DNA from: Cenococcum geophilum
Taxonomy: Eukaryota
Length of the DNA: 64,000 bases
Direction of reading: 5' to 3'
NCBI GenBank assembly: GCA_050273025.1
Contig: CP158635.1
Location: 18,662,001 to 18,726,000, forward strand
Under the pieces are notes generated by a model, which saw only the letters and a list, made by a program, of their open reading frames with translations, was not told where the DNA came from and did not search any database. The translations under genes were made by a program, and so were the position numbers. Positions 1,367 through 55,450 of this stretch are shown here, piece after piece (position 1 is the first letter of the stretch; every line of letters begins with the position of its first letter).

Positions 1367-1549
1367 TTACGTTACGCCTTTTTTACTACTAATACTTAAC
1401 CTATAACTAATTCTACGTCTCTATAATACCGTAGGCGCTGCTAAAAGCAGCGTGTTTATAAGTTACCCTACTCTATACTTCTAAAGAACCTATAATAGTA
1501 AGACGATATTCCTTACTAGCCACTATATTAAACCTAAAGAATAATCTAA

Positions 1550-3140
1550 TACCTATACTTAACCTACGCCGCCAATTAACCCCAGAAGAATTTAACTTAT
1601 TAGCCCTAGCCTTAACCCCTAAGGGGAAGTCTAGTGGCTTAAAAGATTATAACGACCTTAATAAGGTAGATATTAATAATGTCTTATCCTTTATTAACTA
1701 TATAACTACGGATAAGCAAGTGGAAGAGCTACTACCTATTAAAATTAAAATATGAGACGCTAAGACGTTGATAAAAAAGGTAGTATAAGAACCTAATAAA
1801 TACTACCGCCTTCTATAGAACTACTATTTAAAGCTTATATAAGCTGAAATGCATACTGCCTAAGATCGCGATATTATCTAAGACCTGTAAGCTTGTAAGG
1901 CGCTTGCTAACAATATACGCTAAAAGACTAAAGACAACCTCTGTGTGTCTAAACGCGACGTCTAACGGTTAAAGAAGGCTAAGATTATACTTATTGCTAT
2001 AGTTACTAAAAAAGACGGCATAATTAAATACTTATAATCTTAGCTTAATAAGCACATTTATAATAACGCTAGATACCTCTTTACTGTATATAACGCCACT
2101 TAAGTCTCTACGCCCTTAGCAACTTTACCTACTTAACGCTTAATAGAGGGTTAGCGCTAAGTAGCTTTACCTAATAGGAACCCCTACTAAAGTAGTAATG
2201 ATAAAAGCTATAATAATTAAACTTAAGCTACTACTATAGGGTCTAATATATATTACCTTAATCCCCTAGTCTTTTAGGGAGACCGCAAGGAATATAGCTA
2301 CTAAAAGATATAAATCCGCGAGAAACTAACCTAGAGCGCCTGCCTTTTTCCTATAGAAGACACTAAGATTGGTTATATTATTGGGCGAATAAAGGGTATA
2401 CTATTTAATAGACTCTTCGCCTAATAGGAGACTAATAGCCCCTAGAAGTGGTAGTCCTACTAAAAAGTCCTTAATAATCTTAACCTAATATACCGCAACT
2501 ATAACCTATTAGCCACCAGCCGAGCTAAACTACGGGCCCTAAAGATGAACCCCACTAAATTATTTAATAAATTTTATATTAAATTCTAGGAATATACTAG
2601 AGCTCTTACCTAAGACGATACTAAAGACTAGGAGGACCTCCTTAAAAAAGTTACTTATTGCCTTAGTTACGAAGCCGCCAGCCATAACTATAATGATGTT
2701 TATAATATAGTAGCAGCTCTATAAAAGATTAAACGATAACTAAATTAGATTACTACTACTAACCTTTACCCAAAGACCTCTTTATAGAAGCCTTTTAGGC
2801 CTATTGGACCTACATATACTAAGCCACTAACGCTTACTGCCTTAAGTGCTACCAGAGCTAATATTGATTTCTCTATACTAACCTTCTTATAAAAACTCCT
2901 AAATGGAAAGCGCGAGCTACTTTAAAAACTAGGACGCTGCTATAGATGCCGTTAAGAAGGCTGCTATTACGATAACCTAAACTACCTAATAGCTAGGTTT
3001 AGTAGCCGCCGCCTAATACCTAGCCTAATACCCTAAACACTAAATATATTGCTATATACTACTACTATATAAGATAAAGACGTAATAATAGCGGTAGAGT
3101 TAGATATAGAAGCGGAAAACGCTAAGTTCTAGCTTTAAGT
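1550..3140 (+). pseudogene. gag: gag of element B (boundaries approximate)
   Basis: Lies between the LTR and the protease; retrotransposon gag-like stretch at ~2260-2700; Cys knuckle-like GRCYRCR at ~2932-2952. Confidence 0.65.
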
Positions 3141-3229
3141 TGCGGGTTAGGACGCCCTAATAACGGAGGGATCTATATATTGGCTTACTTAATAAATAAC
3201 TTAGTAAAGATAAATAGACGGAAATAGAT

Positions 3230-6200
3230 AGTTTTACCTATAATAGGAACTACTACTAAAAAATAATATAAAAGCCGTTCTATAATTAATTGCGGAGCTA
3301 CTAATAAATTTATAGATACCTAATTTGTGCGCACTTATAACTTACCTACTTTACCCCTTACTAAAGCCCGCGCCCTATAACTTGCTAATAGTAGTTATAC
3401 CGTATAAAAGATTACCTATATAGTATAACTCCACCTAGATATAAATAGGCACCAGGAAGAACTCTAGGCCTATATTATACTACTTACTAACTACCTTATT
3501 ATCCTTAGAATAAACTAGCTTAAATAATATAACCCCGCCATTAACTAGAAGAAGAGAGAAATAACTTTTAACTCTAAATACTATAGAGAGACTTGCCTAG
3601 GGTATAGCCTAGCCGCCTCTATTTACTCCCTAGGATATTAACCTATAGAACCCCTTATTACTCTACTTATAACTAACTACTACTATATAAGTGCCCTAGC
3701 CTTCTACCGTATAGTATATAGGAAAGGCTAGACCGTCGCCGTAGCTTCCTAATTATAACTATATAAGCTTAATAAAGAATAGGACTACGTCCTCTATAGT
3801 AATAGGATAGACATAGTTAACCTTTTAGAAGACGACGCCCCTATAGAACTCTACGGACTTTTACCTTTAGACTTTAAGAAGTTTATAAAGCTTAAAAAAG
3901 GTCTTACTAATAAAGAACTCCGCAAGCTCCTCCCTAAGAGGTATTATAACTTTACCGATATATGCTTATAAAAGGGCGTAGATATACTCCCCCTATATTA
4001 ACCTAACGACTATACTATTAACATTAAATAAGGAAAAATACTACCTTATAAAAGACCCTACCTAATATTAAAAGACAAACTTCTAGTTATAAAAAAGTAT
4101 ATTAACGAGCACCTTAATAAAGGATTTATTTGTCTTAGTATATTACTAGCAGCCGCCCCTATTCTTCTTACTAAGAAACTAAGAGGAGGTATTTAATTCT
4201 ACGTTAACTATAGAGGACTTAACGCTATTATAATTAAAAATTAATACCCAGTACCGCTTATATGTGAGACCCTTAAGCGGCTTAGTTAAGCTAAAATCTA
4301 TACTAAGCTTAATATTATTGCTGCCTTTAACTATCTCTAAATACGGGAAGGTAATAAATGGAAAACCGCATTTATATCGCGCTTTGGCTAATTTAAATAT
4401 ACCGTTATGCCCTTTAGCGTATATAACGGCCTAGGCACCTTCTAAAGCTATATTAATAATACCTTATAAGACTACTTTAACGACTTCTACTTTGCGTACC
4501 TAGATGATATACTTATTTATAGTAATAACCCTTTTAAGTATACCGAACATGTTTAAAAGGTCCTATAGCGCCTTAGGGACGTAGGACTTTATATTAATTT
4601 AAAGAAATGCGAATTCTTAGTTATAGAAGTAAAATACCTTAAACTAATTATTACTACTAAGGGTGTTTATATAGACCCCAAGAAAGTACGTATAATTACT
4701 AAATAGTAAGCCCCTAATTGTATTAAGGACGTATAAGCCTTCCTTAGTTTTACTAACTTTTATTAGAAATTTATATATAACTTCTTAGGTGTAGTAGTAC
4801 CACTTATAGCAATAATGTAAACGAAGGGCCTTTTTGTAAAAGGAAGAAAAACGCATTTACGCTTTACCTAAACGCCTAAACATAAGAAGGCGTTTTAAGA
4901 CCTTAAAAATGCCTTTACTAAAGCACTTATCCTAGCTTACTTTACACCAGAACAACAACTTTATTTTAAAACCAACTCCTTAAACTACGTTAATATAGGC
5001 GTCCTTTTCTAGATAGGTAATAATGATCTCCTTTACCTAGTTACATTCTACTCGTCTAAGCTTATACTATAAGAGTATAACTATAAGATCTATAATAAAG
5101 AACTCCTTATAATTATATAAGCGTTTAAAGAATTCTAACCAGAACTCTTCTTAGTAGAGCCCGACTAGCTAACTAAAGTCCTTACGGACTATTATAACCT
5201 TAAGTACTTTATAACTATAAAGTAGCTAAACTAACGCTAGGTATATTAGAATAAGTTTCTCTCTAGTTTTAACTTTAAAATTGTATATAAACTAGGAGTA
5301 TAAGGTACTAAACCTAATAGCCTAATACGCCGCTCGTAAGACCTTCCTTAGTCTAAAGATAACCCCTAAAATTAGTTCTAATAATAGATGATCCTAAAAG
5401 CACAAAATTTGGCCCTAGGTATACTACCTATAATAGAGCTAACTATACCTTAGCTTTATACTATAAAACTAAAGTTACCTCCCAAAATTAATAAGCTTAT
5501 TACTATGGTATATAACACCTCTATTAACCTACTACTGTATTAACTTATAGCCGTAAAGACTACTAGCACCTATACGCTGCCTATTAACCTCTAAAGCTTA
5601 GGCTAGATTAATATAGCAGCCTTAAAAGTAAAAGAGAATAGGCTCTATTATAAAGGCCGCCTATTTATCCCTAACTTAGAAAATCTATAACGGTAACTAA
5701 TTTAAATAGCCCACGACCTCTAATTAAGTGGCTACCTAGGTAGAGGAGGAACCTATAAACTCTTTAGCCGATACTACTTCTGGCCAAAAATGATAGACTT
5801 AGTTAAATACTTTATAGGCGCCTATTACGGTTCTAAGCGCGCTAAGGCCTTTAATATAAAGTACTAAGGACTATTACACCCTCTACTAGTACCTATATAA
5901 CGATAGGCAGATATTGCTATAAATTTCGTTATTAACCTACCACCCTATAAACGATATGGCCGTACCTATAAGAATATCCTTATAATAATATGCCGACTTA
6001 TAAAAAAGCGCTACTACGTCCTAACTAAAGGCGTAGCCGTTAGTAATGTTACTAACGCCTTCCTTTATAAAGTTTATTAACTACATAGGTTACCTAACTC
6101 AATTACGTCCGATTAAGGTATATAATTTAACTCTAATATATAGACAAATCTACTAACGCCTTAGTATCTCCGTTAAGATATCTATATCCTTTTACTATAA

Positions 6201-7090
6201 AACTGCTAGGTAACTAGAAAACGCTAATGCTAGCATAAAAGCGTACCTATAATAGGTAGTCGCCTATAGTTAAGATAACTGAGTAAATTACCTCCTACTA
6301 GGTAAATTTATAGCGAATAACTACATCTTAACCACTATAGGACTTACCCCGTTCTTTGCAAATAAGGGTTATTACCTCTAATCCGGCATAGAGCCACTAA
6401 AACCTATTAATAAGAAACTACTATATAGTAAACGCCTTAAGATGCTACTTACTAACTAGTATACAAACCGTATAAAAAATCTACTCGACTACTATAAGGG
6501 AGAAATGGCCTAGGCTTAAGCAAAGTAGGCCTACTTCGCCGACTATTATAAAACGCCACCACCGGAGATGCGTATTGGCGACTAGGTATAGCTAGATGCA
6601 CGTAATATCTCTATATAGAGGCCTATAAAGTCACTTAATTATAAGAACCTTAGCCCCTATCTAATTAAATAAGTTATTAATAGGGGAGCCGTATATAAGC
6701 TAGAACTCCCGCCTACCCTAGCTACCCGTGGGATATAGCCTATATTTTACCCATGGCTACTATACCTTTATTAGCCTAACCCCTTACTAGGGTAAATATA
6801 GCCTAAACCCCTACTAGTACTAATCCGAGATAAGAATAAAGACGAGAACTATAAGGAGTAGACTGTTAAACGAATTATTAACTCTAAATACTTTAGTAAA
6901 GGTAGAGGATAACGGCTCTACTATAGAGCTATATATATAGGATCTAATATAGATTAGCCAGAATAGTAACTATAGGAAGACTTTGAAAATGTAAAGGATC
7001 TAATTAGCAACTTTTACTACGCGAACCTATAGAAACTAGGTCTAAGCAGAGATTTTATACCTAATCCTTTATAGGAGCCCTTATAGAGTT
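3230..7090 (+). pseudogene. pol: pol of element B (PR, RT, RNase H, integrase, chromodomain)
   Basis: Protease I(N/D)CGAT at ~3285; RT YLDD at 4497-4508; RNase H de-RIP NYEIYDKELL at ~5078; integrase H-x6-H near 5712; chromodomain de-RIP EEWTVERIVDS...W.PWEDFEN at 6850-7000. Confidence 0.9.
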
Positions 7091-7366
7091 AAACCGCTAT
7101 ATATTACTATATAAGGGCAGATTACCATTAGATTGCGGTAAAGTGCGATTATATAACCGGAATATCGTTAAGATATCCAGGAACTTTAACTAGCGGTTAA
7201 AGTTATCTAATTAGTTAGATTCTTAGATGCCAAGCCTTATTATATAACGTTGTTTTAAGCCTTTAGCAATACCCCCCTTTCTTCTTTTCTATACCTTAAG
7301 TATCCCTTCTATATATATAGTAACCACAGCGTCGCCAGAGCTCTACCTTTATAGGAGGGGGGGTAG

Positions 7367-7559
7367 TGTTACGGAACCCCACCGTAGGGGCCTCTATAGG
7401 AGAACCCCGTGCTCTTATATACACCTTGCGTATAGCTTATATTAGCTACGCGTAGGTATATTACCTCCTTACGCCCTTAACCCTTACGATTGATCGCGTA
7501 ACGTCTTATAGACTCCTTAAATATATATGCTCTATAGCCACTGCCCTTATCCCGTAATA
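7367..7559 (+). repeat. 3' LTR of element B
   Basis: Direct repeat of 1174-1366, preceded by the PPT and followed by the TSD. Confidence 0.96.
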
Positions 7560-8222
7560 TATAGTTTCTTATTACTCTACTATCTATTAGTGCTTTAAAC
7601 TACTAGTCTTGCTAATTAACTTATAAATTTAGGTATTATTCTTAAATTCCTTTAAGGGTCTAAGGCTCTATCACTAGCTCCCTCTAGTTTTATAGGCCTT
7701 TACTTTTCCTAATTATTAGCTACTAGATTTTTATATACTTAGCTTATTCTTTAGCTAATGCCTAGTTTGCTTTTTATTCTTTATATACTATAGATATATA
7801 TTCTCTAGGTATTTCCACTACTATTATCTATTTAAGCATTCTTCCGTAAGGAATCTTCCTAATTAAAGTATTAATTCTCCTAACTTCTAAACTTCTACTA
7901 AATGCTAGCTGTATATATACTTAGTATTTCTATACTATTGCTTATCTAGCGCCTAATATATTCTTATAGGGTACTTCCGATTCTTTTCTTTTAGATTTTT
8001 ATATATTTTATATATATTATCTATATATGCAATCTATAATAGCGTATGGTATACTAGGTATTTTAGGTTAACTCTTAACTTGTCTTTATTTTTAATTTTA
8101 AACCTTTACCGTGTTAATCTAAACGTTATAACTTTATTTATGGGTACTAAGATACGCCTCTTACTTCTCTAGTCCTTTAATTGTTCCTCTAGATCCTTTA
8201 ATATTATAATTAAGGCTCCCTT

Positions 8223-8349
8223 TATCAGGTGACGAAGTCACCTCGCCTATATGTATTGTTCCGCACAGCCGTGTCTGGCATCAAGCCAGTCACTCGTTTA
8301 CCTTTTGTAGGTTTGTGTGGCTAAGTGGTGCGGAGCTTATTACCTCACA
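8223..8349. mobile_element. 127-bp solo LTR inserted in element A
   Basis: Absent from the homologous site of E (~47775); TSD CCCTT at 8218-8222 and 8350-8354; ends T(A/G)TCAGGTGA...TTACCTCACA form a short terminal inverted repeat. Confidence 0.8.
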
Positions 8350-10478
8350 CCCTTAATATAAGTTATAGCCTTTTTAGTAATTAGGTGGTTCTAGATAGCT
8401 CGCTTATCTAACTATATATAGAAATCTTCCTACTTATCGTTATATTGTTGCCTATACTACTTTTAATATAGTTACTAGAGTATATACGGCTTATCCGTAA
8501 GGAAATATCTTCTTATTACTACATTATAATAACCCTTTATATATCGTTTTTTAAACCTAATAAAAATTCCTAGATCCTCTTTATCTTCTAGTTTAGTAAG
8601 CTACTTAGCTCTTAGCGTGCCTGCCCTAGGCCTATTAGTAATTCTTTATATAGGTACTCTATCCCTTATATAACCTAGTATACTAAATCTTTAGTTTAGT
8701 TTCTATTCTTGCTATATAAGGATTCTCTATCTAAATTCCTCTATATTTTCTTTTGGTTTTTACCTTATAAGTAGATTTTTAAAGTCTTTTTACTTTTTAA
8801 TCTTAGTTTATTTAATAGTCCTTATTTATATCTAGAAATCTTAGTCTTATAGGATTCTTAATCCTAAGCTTACTTCTTTCTTAAGCTTAGCTCTAGCCTT
8901 AGTCTAACTAGGCTTTTATAGTGTTTTTATCTCGTCTTAAAAGTCTTAAATCTTACTTATCTTATCTTAAGAGTTTTATATCTTTAAGAAACTTCGTCTT
9001 AAGCTTATTTATATATTACTAAACTAAGCTATTACTCTGCTCTATTAGTTGTCGTTTATTATAGGTCCTTAAGCGTATCTTATCCCGTCTTAGGAATCTT
9101 AAGCGTTTTATATCTCTTCTTAAGAATCTTAAGCCTATGGCCTTTTACCTTTATTAAGTGCCGAAGTGGTTCGCTATCCTACTTCTTTTACGTCTTATAA
9201 AGCGATAGATATTGTGTTTAGTAGGGTCTTAATCCCTACTAATATTCCCTATTCTATAGTGGAATTATCCTTTACCTTTTTTATAATATCTCTAAGGTCT
9301 ATATACTCCTAGTAAGCTGCTTTTATTACCTTATTGTTACTAAATACTTTACCTATATTAAATTTATCGTCCTTAATGTCCAATCTATAAGATAGTTTGT
9401 TAGTTCCTTTAAACTCTAATAATTTTAGCTCCTATGGCTAATAGCTTACGCCATACTTAGCGTCCTTATAAATTTAGTATACGTTATTATAATAAAACGC
9501 AAAACTTTTAATTAAACATTTTTTTATTCCTCGTAGTATACTATTATCCCTCTATATATATATATCTTTTACTAGTCTCGTTCCTTTTACTATATAGTAA
9601 CTTTATCTACTTTTATAGTTTTTAATATAATAACCCTGTTTTCTGCAATTTATATAAGCTCCTTTTTTAAACCATTTTTCTTGCTATAGAGTCCGCCTAA
9701 ACGTTTTTTACTACTAAGATCCCTGGTTCGGCCTCTACTTTTTAACCTTTAATTACTTAAACCTTGTCCTCTGGGTTTCTATAGTTATTTATTTTATTTT
9801 TTATTTTCTTTAGTACTACTTAAGTCTATTAGCTCTGCGCTATATTATAGTTTCTAACTTTAACTTTGTTATTATATGCCCTGCGCCTTATATAACTGTA
9901 GAACTCTATTCTAACCCTTCTTAGTCTACTCTCTTTAATAGATTCTATTGTTAATCTTAATTGCTTAATTAATTAAATCCCTAAGGGTATCCGTATCTTT
10001 TATTAGGATAATTATATCCTAGACTTTTACTTTAAGTCCTTGCTTATACTGTACTATAAACGCCTTACTATTCTATTTAACCTATATTACTAATATTTAA
10101 AACTATATTGTATATTTAATTGCTAAAGTTTTTTATACTAGGTTTTAAAGCTTTTATTCTACTATAGTGGTTACCTCTAGGTTTCTAAATATTTACGTTA
10201 GGTATTCCGCAAACCTATTTTAACTTAAGAATATATATTATACCTCCTAGTTAGTAGTCGTTATACTATACTCCTATACCTTTATAAGGTAAGGCTTAAA
10301 CTGCTTAAGTGCTCTTCCTATTAAGAATAATCCTATATAAGTAACTTAATCTATAGGCGTTTCTAGTTTAACTTCTTTCTACATGGCCTTAAAGTGCATT
10401 TACATAAGGAATCCCTTAAGTTTTAACTTCTCCCCTAAGAATTGCTTAATTAAGGGTAACTTAACCTTAGCTGCTCTA

Positions 10479-12530
10479 CAGTAAAAACTCCTTATAACGA
10501 TAACGGTGTTATAACGATATACTCTATATCACGATCTACACCCCTTAACTAAGCCTTTTTTGGTATAATATTACGATATTCTGACATTTAACGATATCGT
10601 AGGGGTAGCCCCACCAAAATCATTATAAGGAGTTTTTAATTCGTCGGATTTGACCTTTCCTCACCATAAGTTCAGCCATCAATCTTCATCATATAACGAT
10701 TAAAATCTATTAAAATAATACTTAGATCCTACTCTCTATACTTAATTCTATCTTATTTATTATGCCTAGATCTTAAAACCCTTAAAGGCAACGTTATTAT
10801 GGGTTCTCTAACTTTAAGCGTTAGAAAATACGCGCCTACTATATAAAACACCCTCACTTATTATAAAAACACGTTACTTTATAGGCAAGCAACTTCCTCC
10901 GTTAAAAGATTAATTAATCCTTAATATTAGAAATACTAAGCGACAAATTTAACCACCTTAATTCAGCCAAATTGCCACGCGGGCACGGCGGGCGAGAGCG
11001 ATAGCGAGCTGGCGAACATCCTCTCCTTAAGGAAGCTCTCTTTAAGTGGCACTAACGCCTACAGATCTTACGCATTCCTATTACAAGCAATCTTATATAT
11101 ACTGCCGCATCTCAATTATAGCAACGGATACCTCTACTAGCTTAATCGCCTGAGCCAAGGTGGTCAATTGGGTGGCTAGAGGGTTTTAAATCTCGTAACA
11201 GAATTCGCAAAAGGAAGCAATATAGCGAGGCTGCGTTAGTCAATATAGAAGGTGCTAAAGATCATATAATAGAGCTTCGTGCGATTATCGTGTCTTTTCT
11301 ATTAAAGGATATTTATAATATAGATAAGACTAAGCTCTTTTAGAAGGCTATACTAGATACTACACTAGCTACTAAAGCTCTCTTAGGAATAAAAAAGTAG
11401 AAGGCAAAAATATCTCTAGCTAATTGCTCTAACGCAGATGGCTTAGATAAGCTTCCTCTCTAGATAATTAGATCCTTAGCTTAGCCACGATATTTTATAA
11501 GAGCTTATATTAATATCGCTTCACTTAATATTATATAGAAGAGCAATAAGAAGGCCTAAATAACGACAGCGATTATAACTAAATGGCTTACCTAGTTTAA
11601 TAAAAGGATATATAGTAAAAGAGTCATCTTTTTACTTAATAATTTTAGCGCGCATAAAGCAGCTATTTGAACACTTACTGAAAATAATACTCTTAAGAAT
11701 ACACGGGTTGAGTTTCTTCCTCCTAATTGTACCTCTGTATACCAGCCACTTAATTAAGGAATTATTACAAACTTTAAGTTATACTACCAACAATATTAGC
11801 TTAGATTTATGGTGGAGCACTCCCTCTAAGATTAAGATCTATTTAAGCAGATATATGTTCTTTGGGCTATCCAATAGGCAATTATAGCTTAAAAGGAAGT
11901 TATACTAAAAGTAATTAACAGTTACTTCGTCAAATCCACTCTCTTTAGCTTAAGAGAAGGCCTGCTGCCTTACCCTTATAATTATATAGATCCGATTATT
12001 AATAAGGTATAAGAGATAGCTAAATAACTATGTGCTGCTGGAAGGATCCATAAGCCTATAAATATTTAGAATTTTATTTATCTTCCGGGCGAAGATGTAG
12101 TAGACTCTACTAAAAATCTTATTAAGCACGTAGCGGAGCTCTATGCTGGGCTAGATTACAATATAGAAATAGATAAGGAGGACTCCTAATAACCTTAAAT
12201 TAAACTTAATAAGGCAATAGAGGCCTTACAAAAGCTTCGTCTATATAAGGAGCAACAGGAGGATGGTAAGAGAGAGGTTATTACAACTCTATTAAGGCAC
12301 GAGCGTTAAATCCAAGGATGACGACTCTAAAACACCAAGCAGACGACGATTAAATCGGTTTTTGGTGGAGCTAATCACTTAATTTTAACTTCGGGCTTAT
12401 AGATATGCAATATCATTATATAATTTTAACGTTTAGTATGTTTTACGTATAAAGTCTAAATATAACGATACCTTTAGTATAACGATACGGACGGTAAAAA
12501 AAACCGTATCGTTATAAAGAGTTTTTACTG
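10479..12530 (+). mobile_element. pogo/Tigger-type (Tc1/mariner superfamily) DNA transposon, 2052 bp
   Basis: TIR CAGTAAAAACTCCTTATAACGATA at the left end and its near-perfect inverse at the right end; TA TSD at 10477-10478 and 12531-12532; the gag of A resumes across the TA. Confidence 0.95.
10762..12400 (+). pseudogene. CENP-B/DDE_1 (pogo) transposase with RIP stop codons
   Basis: Motifs NIDKTKLF* (de-RIP NMDETGLFW), CSNADGLDKLPL, LLNNFSAH (LLDNFSAH), EFLPPNCTSVYQPLN*GII (QPLDQGII). End approximate. Confidence 0.88.
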
Positions 12531-13280
12531 TAATTCTATTAATCCTTTTTTTAAGTATCCTATTATTATCTATTAATTAATTAACTATTTCTTATAGCTG
12601 TCTAACGGTAACTAGCTAAGAGTTAGTATCTACTATACTGGTGTCTTTACCTAATCCCAATATAGTTACTACCGTTAACGCTATTTATTAGCATTTTATT
12701 AGGGTGCTAAGATCCTAGAGGCCTCCTAACAGGATTTTAACTTTCCTAGAGGTCCTAATCGTCCTAATAGGCTCCTAGCAGGCTCCTAGCAGGATTTTAA
12801 TTTTCCTAATCGTCCTAGTCGTCCTGATAGGCTCCTAGCAGGATCTTTAATTTCCTAATTATCCTCTTACGGTCCTATTAGGGTCCTAATAGGAAACTAG
12901 TATTTCCTAATCGTTCCTAATAGGCTCCTAGCAGGATCTTAATTTTTCTAATCGTCCTATTAGGTTCCTGATAGGATACCCCTAAGCAACACCCCTCCTA
13001 ACCCCCCCCCCCCTAAAGCGACACCTCCTATACACACCCCTCAAGACACCCCCCCAATGCGACACCCTCCCCACTATAATACCCCCCCTAATAGGATACC
13101 TCCCCCCTAATGCAACGCGACCCTATATGCGCGTATACGCGACACACAGTGCTATTAGGTCCCCGCTATATTCCCAATAGCCTATATATACCTCTGCTAA
13201 GTTACCCCCTTTATAGTCACCCTATTCTTTACCCTTCCTTATATCCTCCCTTAGGAGGCACTAGAACGGCAGCCAGTAGA

Positions 13281-13440
13281 GGACCGTCGCCAAAACTAGA
13301 CGATTGTCGCTAGAACTAAACGACCGTCGCTAAAACTAGACGACCGTCGCCAGAACTAGACGACCGTCGCTAGAACTAGACAACCGTTGCCAGAACTAGA
13401 CGACCGTCACCAGAACCAGACGACCGTTACAAGAACTAGA
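13281..13440 (+). repeat. Tandem array of eight 20-bp units (CGACCGTCGCCAGAACTAGA)
   Basis: Directly visible 20-bp period with no spacers. Confidence 0.95.
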
Positions 13441-14100
13441 TAATAACCTTTTAAATAACCAGCTAGCGAAGACCACGAACAATTTAATTAATCAATTAAT
13501 TAAATTTAATATTAGCCTATTACTAAATCGTATTAAGGCCTCCTAGGGAGGCACCCTAGACGACTACTATTTAAATATACAGCTAGCGAACGGCTATAGA
13601 GAATAACCTGGATTAATTAAAGCCTTTAATTAGGCCGACCTCTCCCCTAAATTAAATTAGATACTAATATAGGCAGGTAGGTAAATAGGTAGGCAGGCAG
13701 GTAAGTAGGTAAGTAGAAAAGGACCATCATTAGAACCAGACGATAATCATTTAAATAACCAGCTAGCGAATACCATAATTAATTTAATCGATCGATTAAA
13801 TTAAACTAGAGCCTTAATATTAGCCTATTACCAAATTAAATTAAATTAAGGCCTTTTAGGGAGGCACCCTAAATAATTACTATTTAAATATATAGCTAAC
13901 GAACGCCTATAGAGAATAATTTAAATTAATATAATTAATCGTAATTAAATTAAGCAGAGCCTTTAATTGGGCTAACCTTTCCCCTAAATTATAGATATAG
14001 ACAGGTAGGATAGATAGGTGGGCACGACAGGCACAGGCAGGCACAGATAGGTAGGATAGGCAGATAGGTAGGCAGGCAGACAGGTAGGTAGGCAGGTACT
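13431..14100 (+). repeat. Two ~300-bp tandem units, each ending in an (AGGY)n-like microsatellite
   Basis: TTAAATAACCAGCTAGCGAA at 13451 and 13751; GGGAGGCACCCTA near 13546 and 13859; AGGC/AGGT/AGAC runs at 13670-13715 and 14000-14098. Confidence 0.85.
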
Positions 14101-14620
14101 AGGCCTAGTTAGGAAATCAGTATACAGCTAGCGGATTATCAGGAACACCGCCAATTAACAATTTAGAGCCTCCGTAAGAGGCTCCTTAGTTAATCGCCTA
14201 ACGCCTAAGTAGAGCTCCATAATAGATACAGGCGGTAAATAAAAGAGATTAATTTAGATTATTTAGATTATATATAATTAAATTAATTATATATTTTTTA
14301 ACTAGCTATAAATACTAGAGTGTTAATATACCTTATTTTTAAATCTAGAATTTTTATTATTATCCTAATGGTCCTAATAGTTCTGGAGGTCCTAGAGGTC
14401 CTAGAGGTCCTAGTAGTCCTAGTAGTCCAGGCGACCTCCTAACAGGTTCCTAATAGGATGCTAAGTGTAAATATCTTTTAGAGCTCCTAATAGCCCTAAC
14501 AGGAGCTGTTAGGAGCTGTCAGTACTGTCAGGAGGCATAAACATTTTGCTAATGTTATGGCTGCTGCTTTTAGTAGTATATTATTTAACTTTGTTAATAC
14601 TATAACCTTAGTAGTAAATA

Positions 14621-15039
14621 TATAATGAAGCCTTATAGCAGGAACTATAATAGACTTATTAATAGGCCGGGTATATAGGTAAATAAGAAGTTAACAACGT
14701 AATAATAACTGGTGGAGTGGTTACCTAACAGATTAACTCTAATTATATTCTGAGATTTACTATAAGGAAAGAACTATCTAGGTAGGGACTATGGTTTCTT
14801 AAATATATAACCGTACTTCTAAGAAATCCTCCTTATATGTAATGTACGTATAGTATATAAGGTATATAAGTTCCTTACGTTCCTTTTATTTAATATATAG
14901 TATATTATATAACCTTAGTTACTATTCTTTGTTATATAGCTTGACTAGTTCTATTCTAGACCGTGCCTATATTAACTAACTAGCTTCTTCCGACTTCTCT
15001 CCTAGTAGTTATAATATTATACTTAAAGCGTCCGTAATA
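14621..15039 (-). repeat. 5' LTR of element A (419 bp)
   Basis: Reverse complement of the E LTRs (TGTTACGGACGCTTTAAGT...AAGGTTCCGTTACA) with a diverged middle part. Confidence 0.9.
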
Positions 15040-44800: not shown

Positions 44801-45363
44801 AAGTCCTATAACGGCTCCGTAAGGCTAGCCTCTAAGTTAATATTAAGAAGTTAAAGTTTAGTATTAAGCATATAAAGTACCTAGGTTTTATATTACGGAC
44901 GCTTTAAGTACGATGTTACGACTACTTAAAGAAGAGACGGAAGAAGCTAGTTGGTTAATACAGGCACGGTCCAGAATGGAGCCAATAGAACTATATAACG
45001 AGGAATGGTAACCAAGGTCACATAATATAATCTATATAATCTGTATAATCTGTGGGATCTATAACAGAGCAGATAGAGCACACATACATTACATATAAGA
45101 AGGATTTCATAGGAGTACGGTTATGTATTTAAGGACCCTTAATCCCTACCTAGATAGTTCCTTCCTTATAGTGATTCTTAGAATATAATTAGAGTTAATC
45201 TATTAGGCAACTACTCTACTAGTTATTATTACGTTATTGACTTTTATACTTGCATTTTCTATATACCTAGCCCAATAACAAGCCCATTATAGTTCTTGCT
45301 ATAAGGTTCCGTTATACAATTACTACCTAGTTACGGTATTAATATAAGAAGTCGAACAACAAC

Positions 45364-48330
45364 ATACTACTAAAAGCAGCTACTATAATGCTATTGACGG
45401 CAGCAACTACTTTAGGGACAGGAGGTGATACTAGTATGGCAGATACTAACTTATAGTAACCTGTAACAGTCAGACAGCTATAGGAAATAGTTGACCAGCT
45501 AATAGCTAATAATACAGTATTAGAAGAAAGACTTAACAGGATAGGAGCAGTAAAGATTAAGCTACTATTAATTAAAAGATTTATAGGAGAGAGGTTGAAG
45601 CTTAAAGGATTCCTTACGCAGATATACTTTAAGGTCTTATAGAAAGGAGTAAAGTTACCTATACCCGTAGATCGGATAGCCTATATAGGACTATTCTTAT
45701 TAGGAAAAGCACTTAAGTGGTTCGAACCTTACCTTACGGAGATATAGGTAAATGGAATAACGACCACTAACTAAGATGTGCGATTTATATTCTTAAGTTA
45801 GGAAGGATTCGCAGAATAACTTACGCAGATATTTGGAGACTCGGAAGAAATAACTACAGTAGAAAGAAAACTCTAAAACCTCGTGCAACAAACTTTAGTA
45901 ATTAAGTATACGATATAATTCCAGACACTAGTAATATAAGTAGAGTGGAATAATAGGGCGCTTATAGTATAATATAAACAGGGACTTAAGGCTAAAGTCT
46001 AGGACGTAATTATTCTAATAGAAGATACGAACACCCTAAGGGAACTAATAGATTAGGCGATTAAGATTAATAATCGGATCTACTAAAGGGAATAGGCTAA
46101 AAGAGGCTAGGATAGAGTTCTATAGTTGTATAAGGCGTAGAGTACGTAATAACAAAAGTTAAGTTAGAAACTATAGTATAGCGCAGAGCTAATAGACCTA
46201 AGTGGTACTAAAGAAGCCTATAAAAGATGGAGCAAACTATAGAAACCTAGAGGATAAGGATTAAGTGATTAAAGGTTTAGGGAGCAAAGGCTAAATTAGG
46301 GATTTTAATAGCAGAAGACATTTAGGCGGACTCTATAGTAAGAGAAATGGTTTAAAGAAGGAGCTTATATAAATTACGGAAAATAGGGTTATTACGTTAG
46401 AGACTATAAAGGCAGGCAGAGTTACTATGTAGTAAAAGGCATAAGATTAGTAGACGATATATACGTATAGAGGGATAATAATATGCTACGAGGAACAAAA
46501 GAGTGTTTAATTAAAAGTTTTGCGTTTTGTTATAATAACGCATACTAAATTTATAAGGACGCTAAGTATGGCGCAAGCTATTAGCTATAAGAGCTAGCAC
46601 CTACAAAATATAGAGGAACTAATGAACTAGTTCGCAGATCGGATATTAAGGACGATAAATTTAACCTAAGCAAAACATTCCGTAACAATAAGGTAATAAG
46701 GGCCGCTTACTAGGAGCGAGCAGACCTTAGAGATATTATACTAAAGGTAGAGGATAATTCTACTATAGAATAAGGAATATTAGTAGGGATTAAAACCCCA
46801 CTAGATACAATATCTATCGCTTTATAAGACGTAAAAAAAGTAGGATAGCAAACCACTTTAACACTTAATAAAGGCAAAAGGCCAAAAGCTTAAGATTCTT
46901 AAGACGAGATAAGGCGTACCCTAGGACCTATAATAGACGAAAACCGATAGAGCAGGGCAGCAGCTTAGTTTAAAAACATATAAATAAGCTTAGGATAAAG
47001 TTTCCCATAAACATAAGACTCTTAAGATAAGATAAGTGAGATTTAAGACTTTTAAGACGAGATGAGAATACTATAGACGCCTAGTTAGACTAAGGCGGGA
47101 GCTAAGCTTAAGTTAGAAGTAAGCTTAGGATTAAAGAATCTAAGGGACTAAGATTTTAGAGTATAAATAAGGACACCTATAAATAAGAGGTAAGGAGCTT
47201 CTTTATAGATTAGAGAATCTATAATATAAATAGTAGTTAGACTAAGAGACAGACATATAGACCTAGAAGACTTACTAGGGGAATATAGTATTTAGCCTAA
47301 AGATCGAAAGTTTAATACTAGGATTAAGAAGTAAGACGACTTTAAGGATTAGGGCGTAAGGCGCAAACCAAAAAAAACTATAGAAGAATTTAGGTAAAGA
47401 ATTATCGCATAGCAAGAACAGAAACTAGATAAGAGATCTAGTATATTGGGACGTATAAAGGACAGAGCATTAGTACGAAGAATTACTAATAGGCCGAGAG
47501 TAGGCATACTAAGAGCTAAGTGGCTTACTGAACTGGAAAATGAAGAGGATTTAGGGATTCTAACTAGGTTCGAAGAACGATATATAAAGGGCTATTATAA
47601 TATAGTAATAAGAAGATACTTCCTTATAGACAGACTATATATACTCTAGCAGCTATACCAAAAGTAGTATAGGCAAAGGCATAATAATAAGTGGGAAGAT
47701 TTCTATATATAGTTAAATAAAAAAGTTATCTAGGACTACCTAATTATAGAGAAGGCCATAACGTATATTAAAGGAGCCTTAATTATAATATTAAAGGATC
47801 TAGAGGAACGTTTAGAGGACTAGAGAAGTAAGAGACGCATCTTAGTACCTATAAATAAAGTTATAACGTTTAGATTAGCATGATAAAGGTTTAAACTTAG
47901 GGATAAAGATAAGCTAAGAGTTAACCTAAAGCACCCAGCACACTATACATTATTATAGATTGTGTGTGTAGACAATATATACGAAATGTATAAGAATCCA
48001 AAGGAAAAGAATTAGAAATACCCTATAAGAATATACTAGATAACGGACAAATAATAGTATAGAAATGCTAAATATATATATAGATGGTATCTAGCAGAGA
48101 TCTAAAAGGAAGGAAGTTTAGTACTTTAACTAGGAAGATTCCTTACGGAAGAATGCTTAAACGGACAATAGTAGTAGGAATGCCCAGAAAATACGTGTTT
48201 ATAGTATATTAAAGATAAAAAGCGAACTAGGTATTGGCTAAAAAGCGAGCCAAGTGTACTAGGATTAAGCAGCTAATAGTTAGGAAAAGTGGAGGCCTAC
48301 AGAACCAGAGGGAGCTAGTAGTAGAGCCTT
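45364..48330 (+). pseudogene. gag: Extended gag of E (capsid, CCHC knuckle, ~1.8-kb extra region)
   Basis: De-RIP MPPKAAT start; LKGFLTQ and AL(K/E)WFEPYL capsid motifs; knuckle de-RIP C.NCGKQGHYARDC at ~46365-46410; track ORF 47446-47649 lies in the extra region. Confidence 0.78.
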
Positions 48331-48339
48331 AGACCCTTA

Positions 48340-51300
48340 AAGGAATTTAAGGGCGACACCTAAATTTACAAATTAATTGGTAGGATTAGCAGTTTAAAGC
48401 GCTAATAGATAGTGGAGTAACGCGAAACTATATCTTACTAGCAGCAGTTAAGAGAATGGGATTACCTTATAGACAGAAGGAGCAACCTTACCCATTAATT
48501 ACGATTTTAGGAGATCCAATAACCTATAGAGGAGGAATTATTAATCTTAAAACAGGACCTATTTAGATAACTATTAAAGGAAGATAAATTAAGATGTCTT
48601 TTAATATCCTACTATTAGGACGGGACGAGGCAGTATTAGGTATACCTTAGTTATAGGAATATAATCTAAAAATCGATTGGATTATAGGTTAGGTCGATAT
48701 TAAAGATACTTAACGCCATAAGATGCGATAATAAGCCAAGTTGGTATAGTACTAAGTAGGAGCAACCTATAAAGAAATAGAAAAGGGACTAAGTTATATA
48801 CTAAAGAGATACCACAAGTATAGCAAAAAACTATAGTTACTAAAAAGTGAAAAGCTGTTAAAATATATAGCATAGGACTATAAAATAGAATTAGAACTAG
48901 GAATAAGTCTAAGGTTCTTTCTAATCTATAAGCTTACCAAAGAAAAAGGTAGAGCGCTAAAAGAGTTTATCTAGGAAAATCTATAAAAGGGATACATTAG
49001 ACCATCGCAGTCATTAGCGGGTTATCCAGTACTGTTCGTACTAAAGAAGAATGGCAAACTAAGGCTGTGTATCGACTATAGATAGTTAAACAGCATTACT
49101 AGGAAGGATAGGTATCCTTTACCCTTAATTAGCAAAATCTAAGATAGGATAGGTAATGCGCAAATCTTTATAAAGATAGATCTAAGATAGGCGTACCATT
49201 AGATTAGGATTAAGGAAGGCGACAAATAGAAGGCAGCCTTTAGGTCAAAGGAAGGACTATATAAACTATTAGTTATGCAATTTGGGCTTATAAACGTACT
49301 AGTAACGTTCTAAAAGCGTATTAATAATGTGTTAGGAGAACACTTGGATGAATTTATTATAGTATATCTCGATGATATTATTATCTACTTAATAACTAAG
49401 GAAAAACACGGAGAACACGTTAAATAGGTCTTAAAGAGACTATAAGAAAAACAGATGCTAGTAGCAATTAAGAAATGCGAGTTCTTTACCAAGAAGACCG
49501 ATTTCGTGGGATTTATCATTAAACTAGGCCAACTCAGCATAGATCCAAAAAAGATTAAGGCTATAGTAAATTAGCAGGAACTAGAGAACGTTATATAGTT
49601 GAGATTGTTCCTAGGGTTTTGCAATTACTATAGAAGGTTTATAGCGCAGTGGTTAAAGGACATTAAGCCATTTACGCGATTAATAAAGAAAGAAGAACTA
49701 TAGGCATAGGGAAAGGAGTAAAGAGAACTCTTTAAGAAAGTTAAAGAGTTGTTTACCTAGAAGCCAGTTCTTAAAATCTATTAACTAGGACTAGAGATGG
49801 TTATAGAGACAGATATATTAGACTATATACTAGGGGCGTACTTTATATAAAGATATTAAAATAGATAGTACCTAGTGGCATACTATAGTCGGAAGATAAT
49901 ACTACCAAAGTTAAACTATAACATCTATAATAAGGAGTTGTTAGGTATAGTTATAGCATTAAAGAAATAGAGAGTATTCTTGCAAGGTATAGAGAAACTA
50001 TTTATAGTTAAAACGGATTATAAAAACCTAACAGGATTCCTAACGATAAAGGAACTTAACTAAAGACAGGTTAGATGGGTAGAGATGCTTGCGGAATACT
50101 ATTTTAAGATTTAGTATACTAAAGGTACAAATAATACACGGGCAGATGCTCTAAGCTATAAAGCTAAACTATAAAATAAGGAAAAGCTATTAGGGGCTTT
50201 ATTACAAAAAGATATAGACGGATTAATTAGGTATAATTATCCGAAAATCGCAGTAACTTAAGAAGACGATAAACTAGAGAAAGTCTATAAGATACCGGAA
50301 AGCTTTTAGGCATAAAGAATTCTAGAAGTATAACTAGAAGATCTATAGACGGATATATACAAAAATTAAGAAGCGAAATATATCCTAAGAAGTATAGCAG
50401 AGTAGTTCGTGGAGGACTTTTATAAGGGACTAACTTAAGGACATAATAGGGCCACGGGCTTAGTGTTAAGACTTTAGGAGGAGTATATTATTAACGGAAT
50501 CTAGAGGATAGCTAGAAGGGTTACTAAAGAGTATTTAAATTGCTAAAGGAATAAATTAATAAGGCATAAGCTATATAGGGGGCTATAACCTATTAAAATA
50601 CCAGAGAGACTATAGGAGGTTATATTATAGGACTTTATTATTAAGTTGCCAAAATTAAAAGATCCTATTACCGAATAAGAATATAACGTGATCTTAGTAA
50701 TAGTAGATAAGCTTACAAAGTGGGGATACTTTATAGCATGTATAGAAGAAATCTCAGTAAAGGATATCGCTAGAATCTATGTAAAAGAAGTGTTTATAAG
50801 ACATAGAGCACTAAGTAAGATTATATCGGATAGAGATCTAAGATTTATAGTAGCATTTTAGGAAGTGTTCTTAGCGGAGCAAGGAGTTTAAGCAGTAACT
50901 TCTACTATATATTATCCACAAACAGACGGTTAAATAAAAAGATTAAACTAGACACTAGAATAATATCTAAGGCATTATATTAATTATGCATAAAATAATT
51001 AGGTATTATTATTACCAATTATACAATTTATATATAATACAATATCTTAAGAAGAAATAGGCATATTACTATTTAAGGCAAATTATGGATATAAGCTAAG
51101 AATATCGTTGTTATTATAGTAAGTAAAGAAAACGAGTAGTATAGCTAAAGAAAGGATAAAGGATTTAATAAATCTTTATGTAAACCTTATAGAGACAGCT
51201 AAAGTAGTACAGCAGAGAATAAAAAGGTACTATAATGCTAAGAGATCTAAGGGACTAGATCTTAAGGAGGGAGATAAAGTATAGCTACTATACAAAAATT

Positions 51301-51700
51301 TTAAGAGTTAACGACTAAGTAAGAAATTAGACTATATTAGACTAGGACCTTTTAAAATTATATAAAGGATTTCACCGGTTATGTTTAAGTTAAACCTACC
51401 AGCTAAAATGAAGATCTACCCTATACAGCACATTATAATGCTAGAGCCAGTATATAGGAATATTAAGCCACTAGTCTATAAAGCAGACACATATAGAGGA
51501 TAAGAAGAAGACAAATAGTAAGTTTTAAAGATCGTTAATTATAAGGATATTAACGACAAGATATAGTACAAGGTTAAGTAGATAGGCTATACTAAGACTA
51601 CCTAGGAACTACTAGAGAATCTAAAAAACGCTATAGGAAAGGTACAGGAGTATTAGAAGAAATTAGGTCAGGCAGTATTAATAAAAAAGGATTACTAAAG
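48340..51700 (+). pseudogene. pol: pol of E (PR, RT, RNase H, integrase, chromodomain)
   Basis: ALIDSG at ~48400; YLDD at 49365-49376; HPQTDG-like at ~50912; GPF at ~51345; chromodomain de-RIP WYKVKWTGY..TTWEP.ENL at ~51560-51625. Confidence 0.92.
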
Positions 51701-52303
51701 AATAAGTCACCTAAGGGGGACCTAAGAAGAGCAGTTGCTAAACTACTTAGATCTATTTCCTTCTCTATTAAAGGAGAATCCGTTCTTTTATTACCCAGTT
51801 CCTATAGACCTTATTTTATAAGTTTCTACTCCTTAGAACGGACCTTCTTACGCACCTTCTTAAGATGGATTAGTTAAGCGGACGCCGCTAAACAAGACTT
51901 AAGAGCCCGTTACTGAGTATCGGCAGCCTTCTATTTAGCGTCCTAAGATTGGCGCAATTTAGCAAGAGTAATAGATAGTTTATTATCTAGCCGCGTAGTA
52001 GTAGATTAAATATAAAACCCTAAGATAAATTAGTTAGGGAACCAGACGACTATTAAGAGTAATAGGTCGCGTATATTTAGTATTAGAAGTAGAGCAAACG
52101 TTATAGAACAAACGAATATTTGCTTTAGTATACTCTAAGCAAGAGAACAGTTGTTATAAAGATGGGTTCGCTAACGTAATATAAACCAACCCCTCTTTTA
52201 AATAGCGGAAACACGGAGATAGTATAATCTTACTAAGAGATAATATTGTAACAACAGTGCGAGCACAACGAGCAGTTAAGGAAGAAGAAATTGCTTTAGG
52301 TAT
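51631..52303 (-). pseudogene. Antisense two-exon gene in E: Zn(II)2Cys6-pattern plus coiled-coil protein (~200 aa), RIP-degraded
   Basis: Exon 1 at 52303-52075, intron at 52074-52020, exon 2 from 52019; C-x2-C-x6-C-x13-C-x2-C-x8-C after reverting TAT>TGT (see findings). Confidence 0.68.
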
Positions 52304-52411
52304 AATAAGCAATAATATTAACCAAATTAATTAGACGGATATTATACCTCTAGTAAATAACTTAGAGATATTTTAAATCTTTAAGGACGAAGATAAAGAG
52401 AAGGGAGATGG

Positions 52412-52837
52412 TGTTATGGACGCTTTAAGTATAATATTACGACTACTTAGAGAAGAGACGGAAGAAGCTAGTTGGTTAATACAGGCACGGTCCAGGATAG
52501 AGCCAATAGAACTATATAACGAGGAATAGTAACTAAGGTTACATAATATAATCTATATAATCTATGTAATCTATAGGATCTATAATAGAGCAGACAGAGC
52601 ACATGTATATTACGTATAAGAAGGATTTTATAGGAGTATGGTTATGTATTTAAGGACCCTTAGTCCCTACCTAGATAGTTCCTTCCTTGTAGTAATTCTT
52701 AGAATATAATTAGAGTTAATCTATTGGGCAACCACTCCACCAGTTGTTATTACGTTGTTGACTTTTGTACTTACATTTCCTATACACCTAGCCCAATAAC
52801 AAGCCCATCGTAGTTCTTGCTATAAGGTTCCGTTACA
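52412..52837 (+). repeat. 3' LTR of E
   Basis: Direct repeat of 44891-45316. Confidence 0.97.
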
Positions 52838-55450
52838 TTTTATTATTAGTATAAACGGAATTAAAACCAACCTAGAGAAAACAGCCGTAATTAACTAGTA
52901 GGCACCCCTATAGACCGTAAAGGGGGTATAATCCTTTTTAGGGTTTTATAACTTCTACTAACGCTTTATTAAGAACTATAGTAAAATCACTTAGCCTCTT
53001 AACCGTCTTACTAAAAAAGACTAGCCCTTCTACTTTAACACCATATATAGGCAGGCCTTTAATAAGCTTAAAAAACGGCTAGTATCGGCTCCCCTACTTA
53101 CCCATTTTAATCTAAAACAGCCCTTAATGCTAGAAACTAATACCTTAGACGGCGTAATAGCTAGTATTTTTTCCTAGAAATAACCGGACGGAGAGTAGCA
53201 CCCTATTATATACTATTTAAAGACTATAATAGATACTAAGCTAAATTACTATATCCATAATAAAGAAATGCTAGCTATTATCTCTAGCTTTTAGCACTGG
53301 CGTATATAGCTAGAGGGGACCCCTAAGCTAATTAAGGTAGTTTTAGATTATAAGGCCCTAAAATACTTTATAATAACTAAGGCCCTTATGGCCTGGTAGG
53401 CACGCTAGGCGGATACCCTATCTTAGTTTAACTTCTTAATTATATATAGACTAGGCGCTATAAACTGTACGGACGCTCTTATAAGGCGTAAGTAAGACCT
53501 AAATAACTAAATAGCTGTGAAGATCTTATTATAGACCTAGACGCTACTATAACTAGAATACCTTAACCCCTAAATATAGGCAGAACTAAGCATGGACTCC
53601 TTAGGCGCTAAGATATATCCTATTAACTCCTTTAAACTTAACCTTATTAATAAACTACTATAGGCTAACTAAACAACCCCCTCTCTATAGGAATACCGTA
53701 AAAAGGTAAAAAAATGTTATTAGCCTATAGTCCCTTAAAAACGGACTACTTAAGTATTAAAAACAGCTAGTAGTAGCTAAGGAACAGAACTTACGGACCC
53801 GGCTTATTACTAAAGCTTATACCTAGGTCTCTACGGCCCACCCTAGAAAAAATAAGACCTATAAGATTATTAGTAACCGCTACTACTAGCTTAGAATAAT
53901 TATAGATATTAACCGTTATATACGGAACTGCGATAGCTACTATAGATTTATAATTCCATAAGATAAAACCCTAGGATTATTAAAACCTCTTTTAATACCT
54001 AACCGCCCCTAGTAGTATATCTCTATAGACTTTTATAAGCTACTAATAAACCGCGACGGATATAATATAATTATAATTCTAGTTAACCGCTTTAGTAAGC
54101 GCCTATTCTTAATTCCCTATTATAAGAATATTAATGCTAAGGAGGTAGCCTAACTATATATCTACTACGTCTACCGCATTTACGGACTACTAGATACTAT
54201 TATATTTAATTATAGCCCGTAATTTATATTGGCCTTCTAAAACAAGTTTACCTAGATCCTAGGTATTAGGCTAAAGCTTTCTATAGCATACTATCCCTAG
54301 ATAGACGGCTAGACGGAGATTATAAATTAATATTTAGATTAGAGACTCCGGCCTTTTATTAACTACTTCTAAAATAACTAAGGCAAACTATTACCCCTAA
54401 TAAACTACGCCCAGGCGACTCTACCCTATAACTCTATAGGATTTGCACCTATTTAACTAGAAATAGGGTATTTATCCTAAATAAGCTTTAACTGGGATAG
54501 ACTAGAAGAACTATAGACTATACGCGAGAAACTATTTTATAAGGAAGCCTAGATAGTAGCCTATATAAATCTAAAAAAGGCTTAGAAATTAATAGAATAG
54601 TAGGCAAATAAGTATAAGCGCAAACCTAACTTTACCGTAGGTAATATAGTCTAGGTTATAATAAAGAACTAAAAAATGGAACGGCCTAGCTATAAGCTAG
54701 ACTATTAGATAGCGGGACCGTATAAGGTTCTTAAGAAGATAGGTAACTTGTATAAAGTAAAGCTCCCAGATTTAATTAAGGTTTACTCTATTTTCTCGCT
54801 AAATAAGCTATAGAAAGCTATAAATAACCTATTACCTAAATAAAAGAACGAACCTCCCCTACTAATTTAAGTTAATGGCGACAATAAATAGGAAATTAAA
54901 GAAGTACTGGCCTATAAACTAGTAAGGAAAACGCTAAAGTACCGCGTTAGTTAGAAAGGCTATAACCTAGATCCTACCTAGTACCCTATATAAAACTTTA
55001 TTAGTAGTCCCTATAAGCTTTAAGAATTCTATAACTGCTACCCTAATAAATTAGGACCCCTAAAGTACCTAGATAAGTAGATGGAGTACTAGTATAGTAA
55101 AGATAATAAGCTATTAGAAGAATATAAAGATAAGAACGCCCTATAAGTATAATATAGACTATAAAGCCTAAGGGCAGGCTTTTATAGAGGGGGGGGTAAT
55201 ATTATAGCACTAGCAGAAACTGGTAGAACCTAGTAGAACTTAATAGAACTTAGTTAGCAGAACTTAGTAAAACTTTATAGTTACGTAACTAAAAGACCGT
55301 ATAAAAAGAACCCTACTTTAACTAGCGCTGCTCTTCTTCTCCTTTCCTTTCTTTAGCTTTAGATCCTTGTTTATAGACTACCAATTATATAGGCTTACGC
55401 GTCCCTCTTACCATACTCGTGCCTCGATTAACTAAGTCGCTAACACCTAT

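Follow-up and report, generated by a model that had tools for sequence, protein, structure and literature searches.

Does a fungal retrotransposon carry, on the strand opposite to gag-pol, a further gene that is spliced and codes for a protein? The question is raised by a 64,000-nt stretch of Cenococcum geophilum DNA (GenBank contig CP158635.1; this whole stretch is referred to below as the window) and by one element within it, element E, a Ty3/gypsy chromovirus degraded by repeat-induced point mutation (RIP) and bounded by two long terminal repeats (LTRs) and a 5-bp target duplication, TTTTA. An initial annotation had read, antisense to the 3' part of this element, two exons encoding a cysteine-rich and then helical protein. 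The best overall explanation, which we consider probable, is a real third gene of the chromovirus family, antisense and split by an intron, that is dead in the window. That the antisense gene is real and selected is very likely, and that its protein acts as an LTR or chromatin regulator of the element's transcription or integration is put forward as a tentative suggestion. What the sequences themselves show is the structure of the gene, its presence in all copies examined, its occurrence without the intron among unmutated records, and antisense-frame selection.

The antisense gene and its intron-less relatives

The gene occupies the minus strand at 52303-51631, between the end of the chromodomain (~51650) and the start of the 3' LTR (52412; Table 1). 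Translation of this strand gave a reading identical to the annotated one in both frames. RIP has cost the window copy its start codon, its splice donor and four of its six Cys codons, leaving two, and has created nine stops. As annotated, the four Tyr codons at Cys positions (52204, 52183, 52132 and 52105) are all TAT. The intron segment, 52074-52020, starts with ATACGC, has CTAAC at 52037-52033 and ends with TTAG, and its removal joins T(52075) to GG(52019-52018), creating the Trp codon TGG.

Metagenome contigs were scanned for relatives; from the 538 found we retained the top 80 loci, which supplied 83 copies of the element tail. With the window these make up 84 rows, and 103 copies of the integrase core served as the control. 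All 83 copies bear RIP damage, with 18-37 stops for every 333 sense codons, are 69-77% identical to the window, and carry the antisense gene in frame. The proposal that the Tyr residues are RIP products of Cys is borne out by these copies, in which Cys codons are found at the six positions in 34, 51, 34, 45, 72 and 42 of 83 and every other codon is Tyr, save for a His in one copy at one position. All six Cys are kept in two of the 84 rows and five in 12. Of the 83 copies, 22 have ATG and 61 have ATA as first codon, and a G at 52074 in 27 copies agrees with the claim that the donor was once GT. At the acceptor, 79-83 of 83 copies still have AG, and the intron-sized segment measures 55 nt in 84/84 rows. 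The supposed CTAAC branch point proved to be a feature of the window copy only, 75 of the 83 copies having GTAAC there. Each internal stop of the window copy has a non-stop RIP precursor in other copies; the eight in exon 2 are all CAA, CAG, TGG, CGT or other sense codons elsewhere, and the terminal TAG or TAA of the gene is present in 83/83 copies. The observation that the stops of the antisense frame are exclusively TAA or TAG is uninformative, as all 60 listed stops (of 77) in the damaged pol are likewise TAA or TAG. A separate scan of viral contigs with P0007, an unmutated pol relative, gave 95 pattern matches with no relative among them.

Unmutated relatives were sought with a profile made from the 84 antisense translations (alignment A2). 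A word-based search with this profile found 528 predicted proteins of 48-167 residues, and at E<=1e-3 an exhaustive library contained 205 clusters (50% identity), 125 of them reaching E<=1e-10; most of the 205 are frames of 86-93 residues from RIP-damaged contigs. Six unmutated proteins, P0173, P0333, P0335, P0336, P0337 and P0339, lack the intron. They come from contigs of 921-1423 nt and join exon 1 to exon 2 through the predicted Trp, with ...(D/N)(A/S)EW on one side of the junction and S(R/Q)V... on the other. In P0173 (152 residues, contig of 1246 nt) the N-terminus and the six Cys are followed by ...DAEW and then by SRV... and the long helical sequence, matching the spliced product, Trp codon and helix included, that had been predicted from the window. 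A search with P0173 then found P0333 (239 residues, contig of 1423 nt), which shares the C-terminal motif of the window copy, and P0335, P0336, P0337 and P0339 (contigs of 921-1193 nt), which show the same junction. When aligned to the window by tblastn, P0173 falls into two segments, 52303-52067 and 52005-51814, in two different frames; on the loci L001, L004, L030 and L032 it likewise gives two segments in different frames, ~55 nt apart.

The six intron-less records, being on short contigs, imply a spliced mRNA. They could instead be DNA, namely processed or domesticated copies or elements that never had the intron, a possibility favored by the fact that the evidence consists of protein records whose contigs and library type were not seen, and by RNA runs on the window that contain no junction. 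We consider it very unlikely, given that 84/84 genomic rows keep the 55-nt GT-AG segment, that the contigs of all six records, at 0.9-1.4 kb, are as long as a small mRNA would be, and that in P0340, from a 120.8-kb contig, the frame of exon 2 reads upstream into intron-like sequence. Loss of 55 nt would, moreover, break a pol frame that is open in 8/8 intact relatives (see below).

Several observations weigh against the reading as a spliced gene. Taken alone, the cysteine pattern in the window is at chance level: in six frames a Cys-or-Tyr pattern of this spacing has two matches, the other being a reverse-transcriptase motif at 59065, a Cys-only pattern has none, and Tyr accounts for 7-8% of window codons and stops for ~10%. 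The observation is raised above chance by the other copies, the unmutated relatives and the substitution patterns. The junction is seen in protein records, not contig DNA, and we infer the origin from spliced RNA because the contigs are short and the intron is in all genomic copies. Four of the six intron-less records start merely 6-14 residues before the junction, so that the whole cysteine region and the helix occur together only in P0173 and P0333. The junction of P0219 is six residues long, not five, for which we found no explanation. The antisense start is uncertain, as P0333 is without the ATG region.

P0219 belongs, with P0166, P0144 and P0191, to a sister subfamily in which the sequence reads on divergently after the sixth Cys, and in P0219 an apparent join to the helix lies a few codons farther on. 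The position of the intron may differ between subfamilies.

Transcription was followed in four runs (one of raw RNA, two sets of metatranscriptome contigs and one of DNA), whose reads or contigs were placed on 51300-52900 at 80% likeness. None shows a 52074/52020 joint, a result that is uninformative either way since contigs reveal neither strand nor absence. The raw RNA run contributed 44 reads, each matching the stretch only in part; one metatranscriptome contig (record 12) spans the intron unspliced, and the metatranscriptome contigs lie mainly over the LTR. In these two sets the summed depth over the LTR (52380-52865) is 10-100x that of the internal region (up to 1166 versus ~10-20), so that both sets are rich in LTR-containing RNAs of the family or its relatives.

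The first 31 residues of P0333 match the minus strand at the edge between the polypurine tract (PPT) and the LTR, in a third frame. Its 5' join skips ~61 nt of the genomic copies, including the ATG (window 52436-52276; L001 14089-13953), which may reflect a second 5' intron, or an isoform with another start, that is not placeable on the window with confidence. The match at the PPT/LTR edge indicates that the transcript reaches into the 3' LTR side. The suggestion that transcription comes from that side fits this one record. In relatives such as P0334 the minus-strand frame is open across the PPT as well.

Selection on the antisense frame and the overlap with pol

RIP produces transitions only, so transversions among the copies report ordinary divergence, and we used them to determine which strand selection follows. 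In exon 2, where the antisense wobble position is the second position of the sense codon, transversion diversity is 0.126 at the antisense wobble versus 0.062 and 0.066 elsewhere. The transversion-polymorphic sites number 45 there versus 24 and 23 (chi-square p=0.0065, permutation p=1e-4), and the sense wobble has no transversion excess. The two strands share their wobble positions in exon 1, where sites were therefore split by degeneracy: 24 of 52 antisense four-fold sites are polymorphic for transversions versus 2 of 24 other sites (p=0.0014), while sense four-fold status has no effect (13/40 versus 13/36, p=0.81). The integrase-core control behaves in the opposite way and follows the sense frame, with 102 polymorphic sites at the sense wobble versus 70 and 52, and with 65/106 versus 37/143 polymorphic in the degeneracy test. 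The chromodomain also shows the sense codon phase. These tests and their control indicate that the antisense protein is what selection sees, and purifying selection on this frame is supported.

Hardly any transversions occur in the intron (52020-52074) or in the stretch 52304-52459, whichever codon position is considered (diversity 0.001-0.03 in the 83 copies), and both are more conserved than the exons. The second stretch begins at the antisense start, takes in the PPT and extends ~45 nt into the LTR; its part 52340-52459 has almost no transversions among copies. Constraint at the nucleotide level is thereby suggested for both, exerted by cis-acting signals, for example splice sites, the end of the LTR, the PPT or a promoter of antisense transcription.

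The same substitution data bear on the alternative that the product is an antisense regulatory RNA and its open frame incidental. Antisense RNA is known to regulate other LTR elements, Ty1 among them, and RNA depth in the two metatranscriptome runs lies mostly on the LTR. Selection on the region has codon periodicity and respects antisense four-fold degeneracy, and the frame, start, stop and frame-restoring intron are all conserved, which makes a mere RNA very unlikely.

The annotation had placed the gene between pol and the PPT, a description that needs correction. A query with the integrase-chromodomain region found 61 proteins, of which the nine closest (P0006-P0014) are 53-69% identical and have no RIP stops. 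In all eight of these nine that reach so far, the pol frame stays open for ~290 residues past the chromodomain, crosses the antisense region and then the PPT, which it reads as an acidic run, and comes to a common end in the LTR. The plus frame of the window matches these tails and ends at the stop 52530-52532, present in 80 of the 83 copies. Because the pol frame continues through the region in intact relatives, the antisense gene does not lie in a free spacer.

This overlap offers a further alternative, in which no antisense gene exists and the minus frame is a shadow of the C-terminal extension of pol. It was our first working idea, adopted because the sense strand has, at all six Cys codons, a complementary His or Gln codon that is kept in all eight relatives, and it was dropped on the strength of the spliced records and the selection tests. 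Besides these codons and the open pol frame itself, it can draw on the chance level of the cysteine motif taken alone and on exon 1, where the wobble is shared by both frames and where, with the sense tail fixed, the antisense frame was open in 16-29% of random back-translations. In the same trials the antisense frame of exon 2 was open in just 0.8-12%. Spliced records exist, conservation extends to the terminal stop and splice sites, and substitutions follow the antisense phase and four-fold sites with no sense signal, although the integrase does show one; the pol extension has no sense-phase periodicity where the antisense gene overlaps it. We therefore consider a shadow frame highly improbable and retain the reading as an antisense gene. 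Conversely, with the antisense exon 2 protein fixed and synonymous codons chosen at random, the sense frame was open in 0-18% of trials and contained 1.5-6.6 stops. That intact elements keep both frames open goes beyond what either frame would produce as a by-product of the other.

Element E is a Ty3/gypsy chromovirus by its LTRs, target duplication, pol domains and C-terminal chromodomain (Table 1). With X at the stops, the pol of the window matches the Pfam families RVT_1 (6.7e-26), RT_RNaseH (4.7e-21) and SH3_Tf2-1 (3.4e-10); rve and Chromo were scored on close pol relatives, and the chromodomain of the window copy, legible in its frame with an end near 51650, has no Pfam score of its own. 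Nested RIP-degraded repeats fill the whole 64 kb (GC content 0.25-0.41). A second copy of the element E family lies on the minus strand at 13-15039, broken by other insertions and without its 3' part, with an LTR at ~14555-15039. In a tblastn search of the window with 19 relatives of the antisense protein, the gene was found in element E only.

Table 1. Coordinates in the window of element E and of the parts of the antisense gene
Feature	Position	Strand	Remarks
5' LTR	44891-45318	+	Preceded by target-site duplication TTTTA at 44886-44890
RIP-damaged pol	48300-51650	+	Protease, reverse transcriptase, RNase H, integrase, SH3-like domain, chromodomain
Pol-frame extension past chromodomain, ~294 codons	51651-52532	+	Covers the whole antisense gene; ends 120 nt inside the 3' LTR
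PPT	52383-52411	+	Abuts the 3' LTR directly; acidic E/D-rich codons in the sense frame
3' LTR, TG...CA	52412-52837	+	Followed by target-site duplication TTTTA at 52838-52842
Antisense exon 1, 229 nt	52075-52303	-	N-terminal helix and six-cysteine region; one RIP stop at 52156
Antisense start codon	52303-52301	-	ATA in the window, formerly ATG
Six-cysteine region	52103-52213	-	C-x2-C-x6-C-x13-C-x2-C-x8-C; four of six codons TAT (Tyr)
Codons at the six Cys positions (first nt)	52213, 52204, 52183, 52141, 52132, 52105	-	
Spliceosomal intron, 55 nt	52020-52074	-	Donor GT now AT; acceptor TAG, followed by G
Antisense exon 2	51631-52019	-	Other reading phase; long helix, acidic/Ser-rich stretch, conserved C-terminal motif; eight internal RIP stops
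Antisense terminal stop TAG	51633-51631	-	End of exon 2

The antisense protein and its possible fold

The antisense protein has ~205 residues. AlphaFold models a short N-terminal helix and one long helix, residues 77-151 of P0173 and 98-200 of P0333, the latter at a predicted local distance difference test (pLDDT) score of 95-99 in both. The long helix is proline-free, 36-46% charged and ~75-103 residues in length, and the best single heptad register, compared with shuffles, gave p=0.001-0.19 in five proteins. The six Cys are spaced x2, x6, x13, x2 and x8 in P0173, P0333 and P0067. Gal4-type zinc clusters have the consensus C-x2-C-x6-C-x5-12-C-x2-C-x6-8-C, so that the middle loop of 13 is one residue past their range.

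The annotation had recognized in this region the spacing of Gal4-type zinc clusters. The cysteine spacing is Gal4-like; membership of the family is not established, since all scores stay below the Pfam cut-offs and solved structures gave no match. Zn_clus (PF00172) remains below its 21-bit cut-off, with a best score of 17.4 bits and E<=1 in 7 of 84 and 5 of 43 sequences, and Pfam has no match to the window's own exon translations. Among PDB sequences the family profile found no Gal4-type chain and a single row, a de novo TIM barrel with E=5.9; phmmer of P0067 against PDB gave 0 matches, and Foldseek against PDB gave 0 at E<=10, a weak test with a cysteine region modelled at pLDDT 44-62 only. 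That low confidence of the model itself and the presence of only one basic residue between Cys2 and Cys3 speak against a Gal4-type factor as well.

The protein may then be real and have another fold, for example a divergent one related to DUF3716, or Cys that merely stabilize it, its helix serving as an adaptor for Gag, integrase, RNA or a host factor. We regard this as a serious possibility, short of a preferred one. Gal4-type fingers carry basic residues between Cys2 and Cys3, which are missing here. DUF3716 (PF12511) is likewise below its cut-off (22 bits), with 16.7 for P0067 and 15.4 for P0334 and matches in 1 of 84 and 2 of 43 sequences; these two alignments span nearly the whole profile of 59 positions (4-59, E=0.007, and 3-59, E=0.018). 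A search of the ESM Atlas with the domain alone led to a cluster with DUF3716 on 28% of its members (score 0.76). On the other side, the order of cysteine cluster, linker and long helix is that of the DNA-binding and dimerization regions of Gal4-type proteins. The nearest ESM Atlas cluster (204 residues, 77 members, Ascomycota, score 0.92) bears the automatic name 'Zn(2)-C6 fungal-type domain-containing protein'. DUF3716 proteins, according to passages in two reports, are themselves linked to DNA (PMC10776026, PMC8232023). The ESM Atlas matches are leads only, and assignment of the antisense protein to either Zn_clus or DUF3716 is not established.

On the reading of a protein-coding antisense gene, the following mechanism can be envisaged. 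The gene would start just inside the internal region, beside the PPT and the 3' LTR, and be read from the minus strand. Its predicted product would begin with a short N-terminal helix and the six-cysteine region; a helix of 75-100 residues without proline would follow, then a stretch rich in acidic residues and Ser, and finally the C-terminal motif. The six Cys could bind zinc and the long helix mediate dimerization, allowing the protein to act on nucleic acid in the nucleus. Its most likely target would be the LTR or the chromatin of the element itself, in the manner of a retroviral antisense factor.

Comparison with known antisense genes and implications

The closest known case, by its description, is brtn of the Boty element. 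A paper by Zhao et al. (2011, Virology 417:248) is said to deal with brtn of Boty in Botrytis. The gene is presented, in the relevant passages, as an additional antisense gene of Boty-like elements, situated between pol and the 3' LTR, whose function is not known (PMC7264820, PMC8365987, PMC4227169, PMC5987419). As here, it is an extra antisense gene at the pol/3' LTR position of a fungal Ty3/gypsy element with a chromodomain (PMC7264820, in its passage on brtn); the passages on brtn mention neither splicing, nor six Cys in such a pattern, nor an overlap with pol. The antisense gene of element E shares what defines the brtn type: it is on the strand opposite to gag-pol, lies between the pol domains and the 3' LTR, is present in all copies examined and shows coding-like conservation. 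The nearest Sclerotinia pol match is 35% identical to the pol of element E, which therefore represents a different lineage.

Plant Ty3/gypsy elements, including Grande1, RIRE2, Retand and PvRetro13, also have antisense open reading frames (ORFs) of unknown function between pol and the 3' LTR. They share with the present gene its position, its orientation, its presence in most copies of a family and a conservation like that of other element proteins, as outlined in a section of PMC7264820. The plant elements named there belong mostly to non-chromovirus lineages, and section 5 of that article mentions no pol overlap for them. One literature search, aimed at antisense ORFs of fungal gypsy retrotransposons, returned no paper, and another, aimed at introns and antisense genes of fungal chromoviruses, returned none on this subject as judged by title or abstract.

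With HBZ of human T-cell leukemia virus type 1 (HTLV-1) the likeness is one of design only, and no homology is claimed. HBZ, a basic leucine zipper protein of a vertebrate retrovirus, is encoded by a minus-strand gene near the 3' LTR; it is made from a spliced mRNA and is a nuclear factor with a dimerizing helix that regulates transcription of its own element. Gal4-type proteins (PF00172) resemble the antisense protein in the x2, x6 and x2 Cys spacings, the linker, the long helix and their fungal origin, and differ from it in the middle loop of 13, the last spacing of 8, the lack of a basic cluster, the sub-cut-off score and the low-confidence model. DUF3716, a cysteine-rich fungal module of ~59 residues, has in common with it a place on transposons: the module occurs, as stated in parts of two reports, in REP9-1 and REP9-2, two genes of the IS3EU transposon of Zymoseptoria, and in PSC58/NCU05718, an orthologue of a telomere-sequence-binding protein (PMC8232023, PMC10776026). 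Unlike its members, the antisense family scores below the cut-off and matches in few sequences.

A bolder version of the argument would see in the antisense gene the third canonical gene of a large fungal chromovirus clade, with ~670 nt of true dual coding. Its product would be a zinc-binding, dimeric, LTR-recognizing factor that balances sense transcription, silencing and integration, a counterpart of HBZ, possibly with a DUF3716-like module shared with class II transposons. We think this version, taken as a whole, unlikely.

Extra genes that run backwards are already known from brtn and from the plant antisense ORFs; what is added here is the evidence on splicing, selection and dual coding, which justifies a modest follow-up. 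For annotators the locus holds two traps, in that the long 'pol tail' of such elements is not a conserved protein domain and that transposon genes may account for the small cysteine-rich 'hypothetical proteins' seen in many Ascomycota. Three things emerge from sequence: that the fungal gene is probably spliced, that selection acts on the antisense protein and not on the pol frame, and that it has ~200 clusters of relatives at 50% identity. The antisense extra gene thereby becomes a testable gene family rather than a curiosity.

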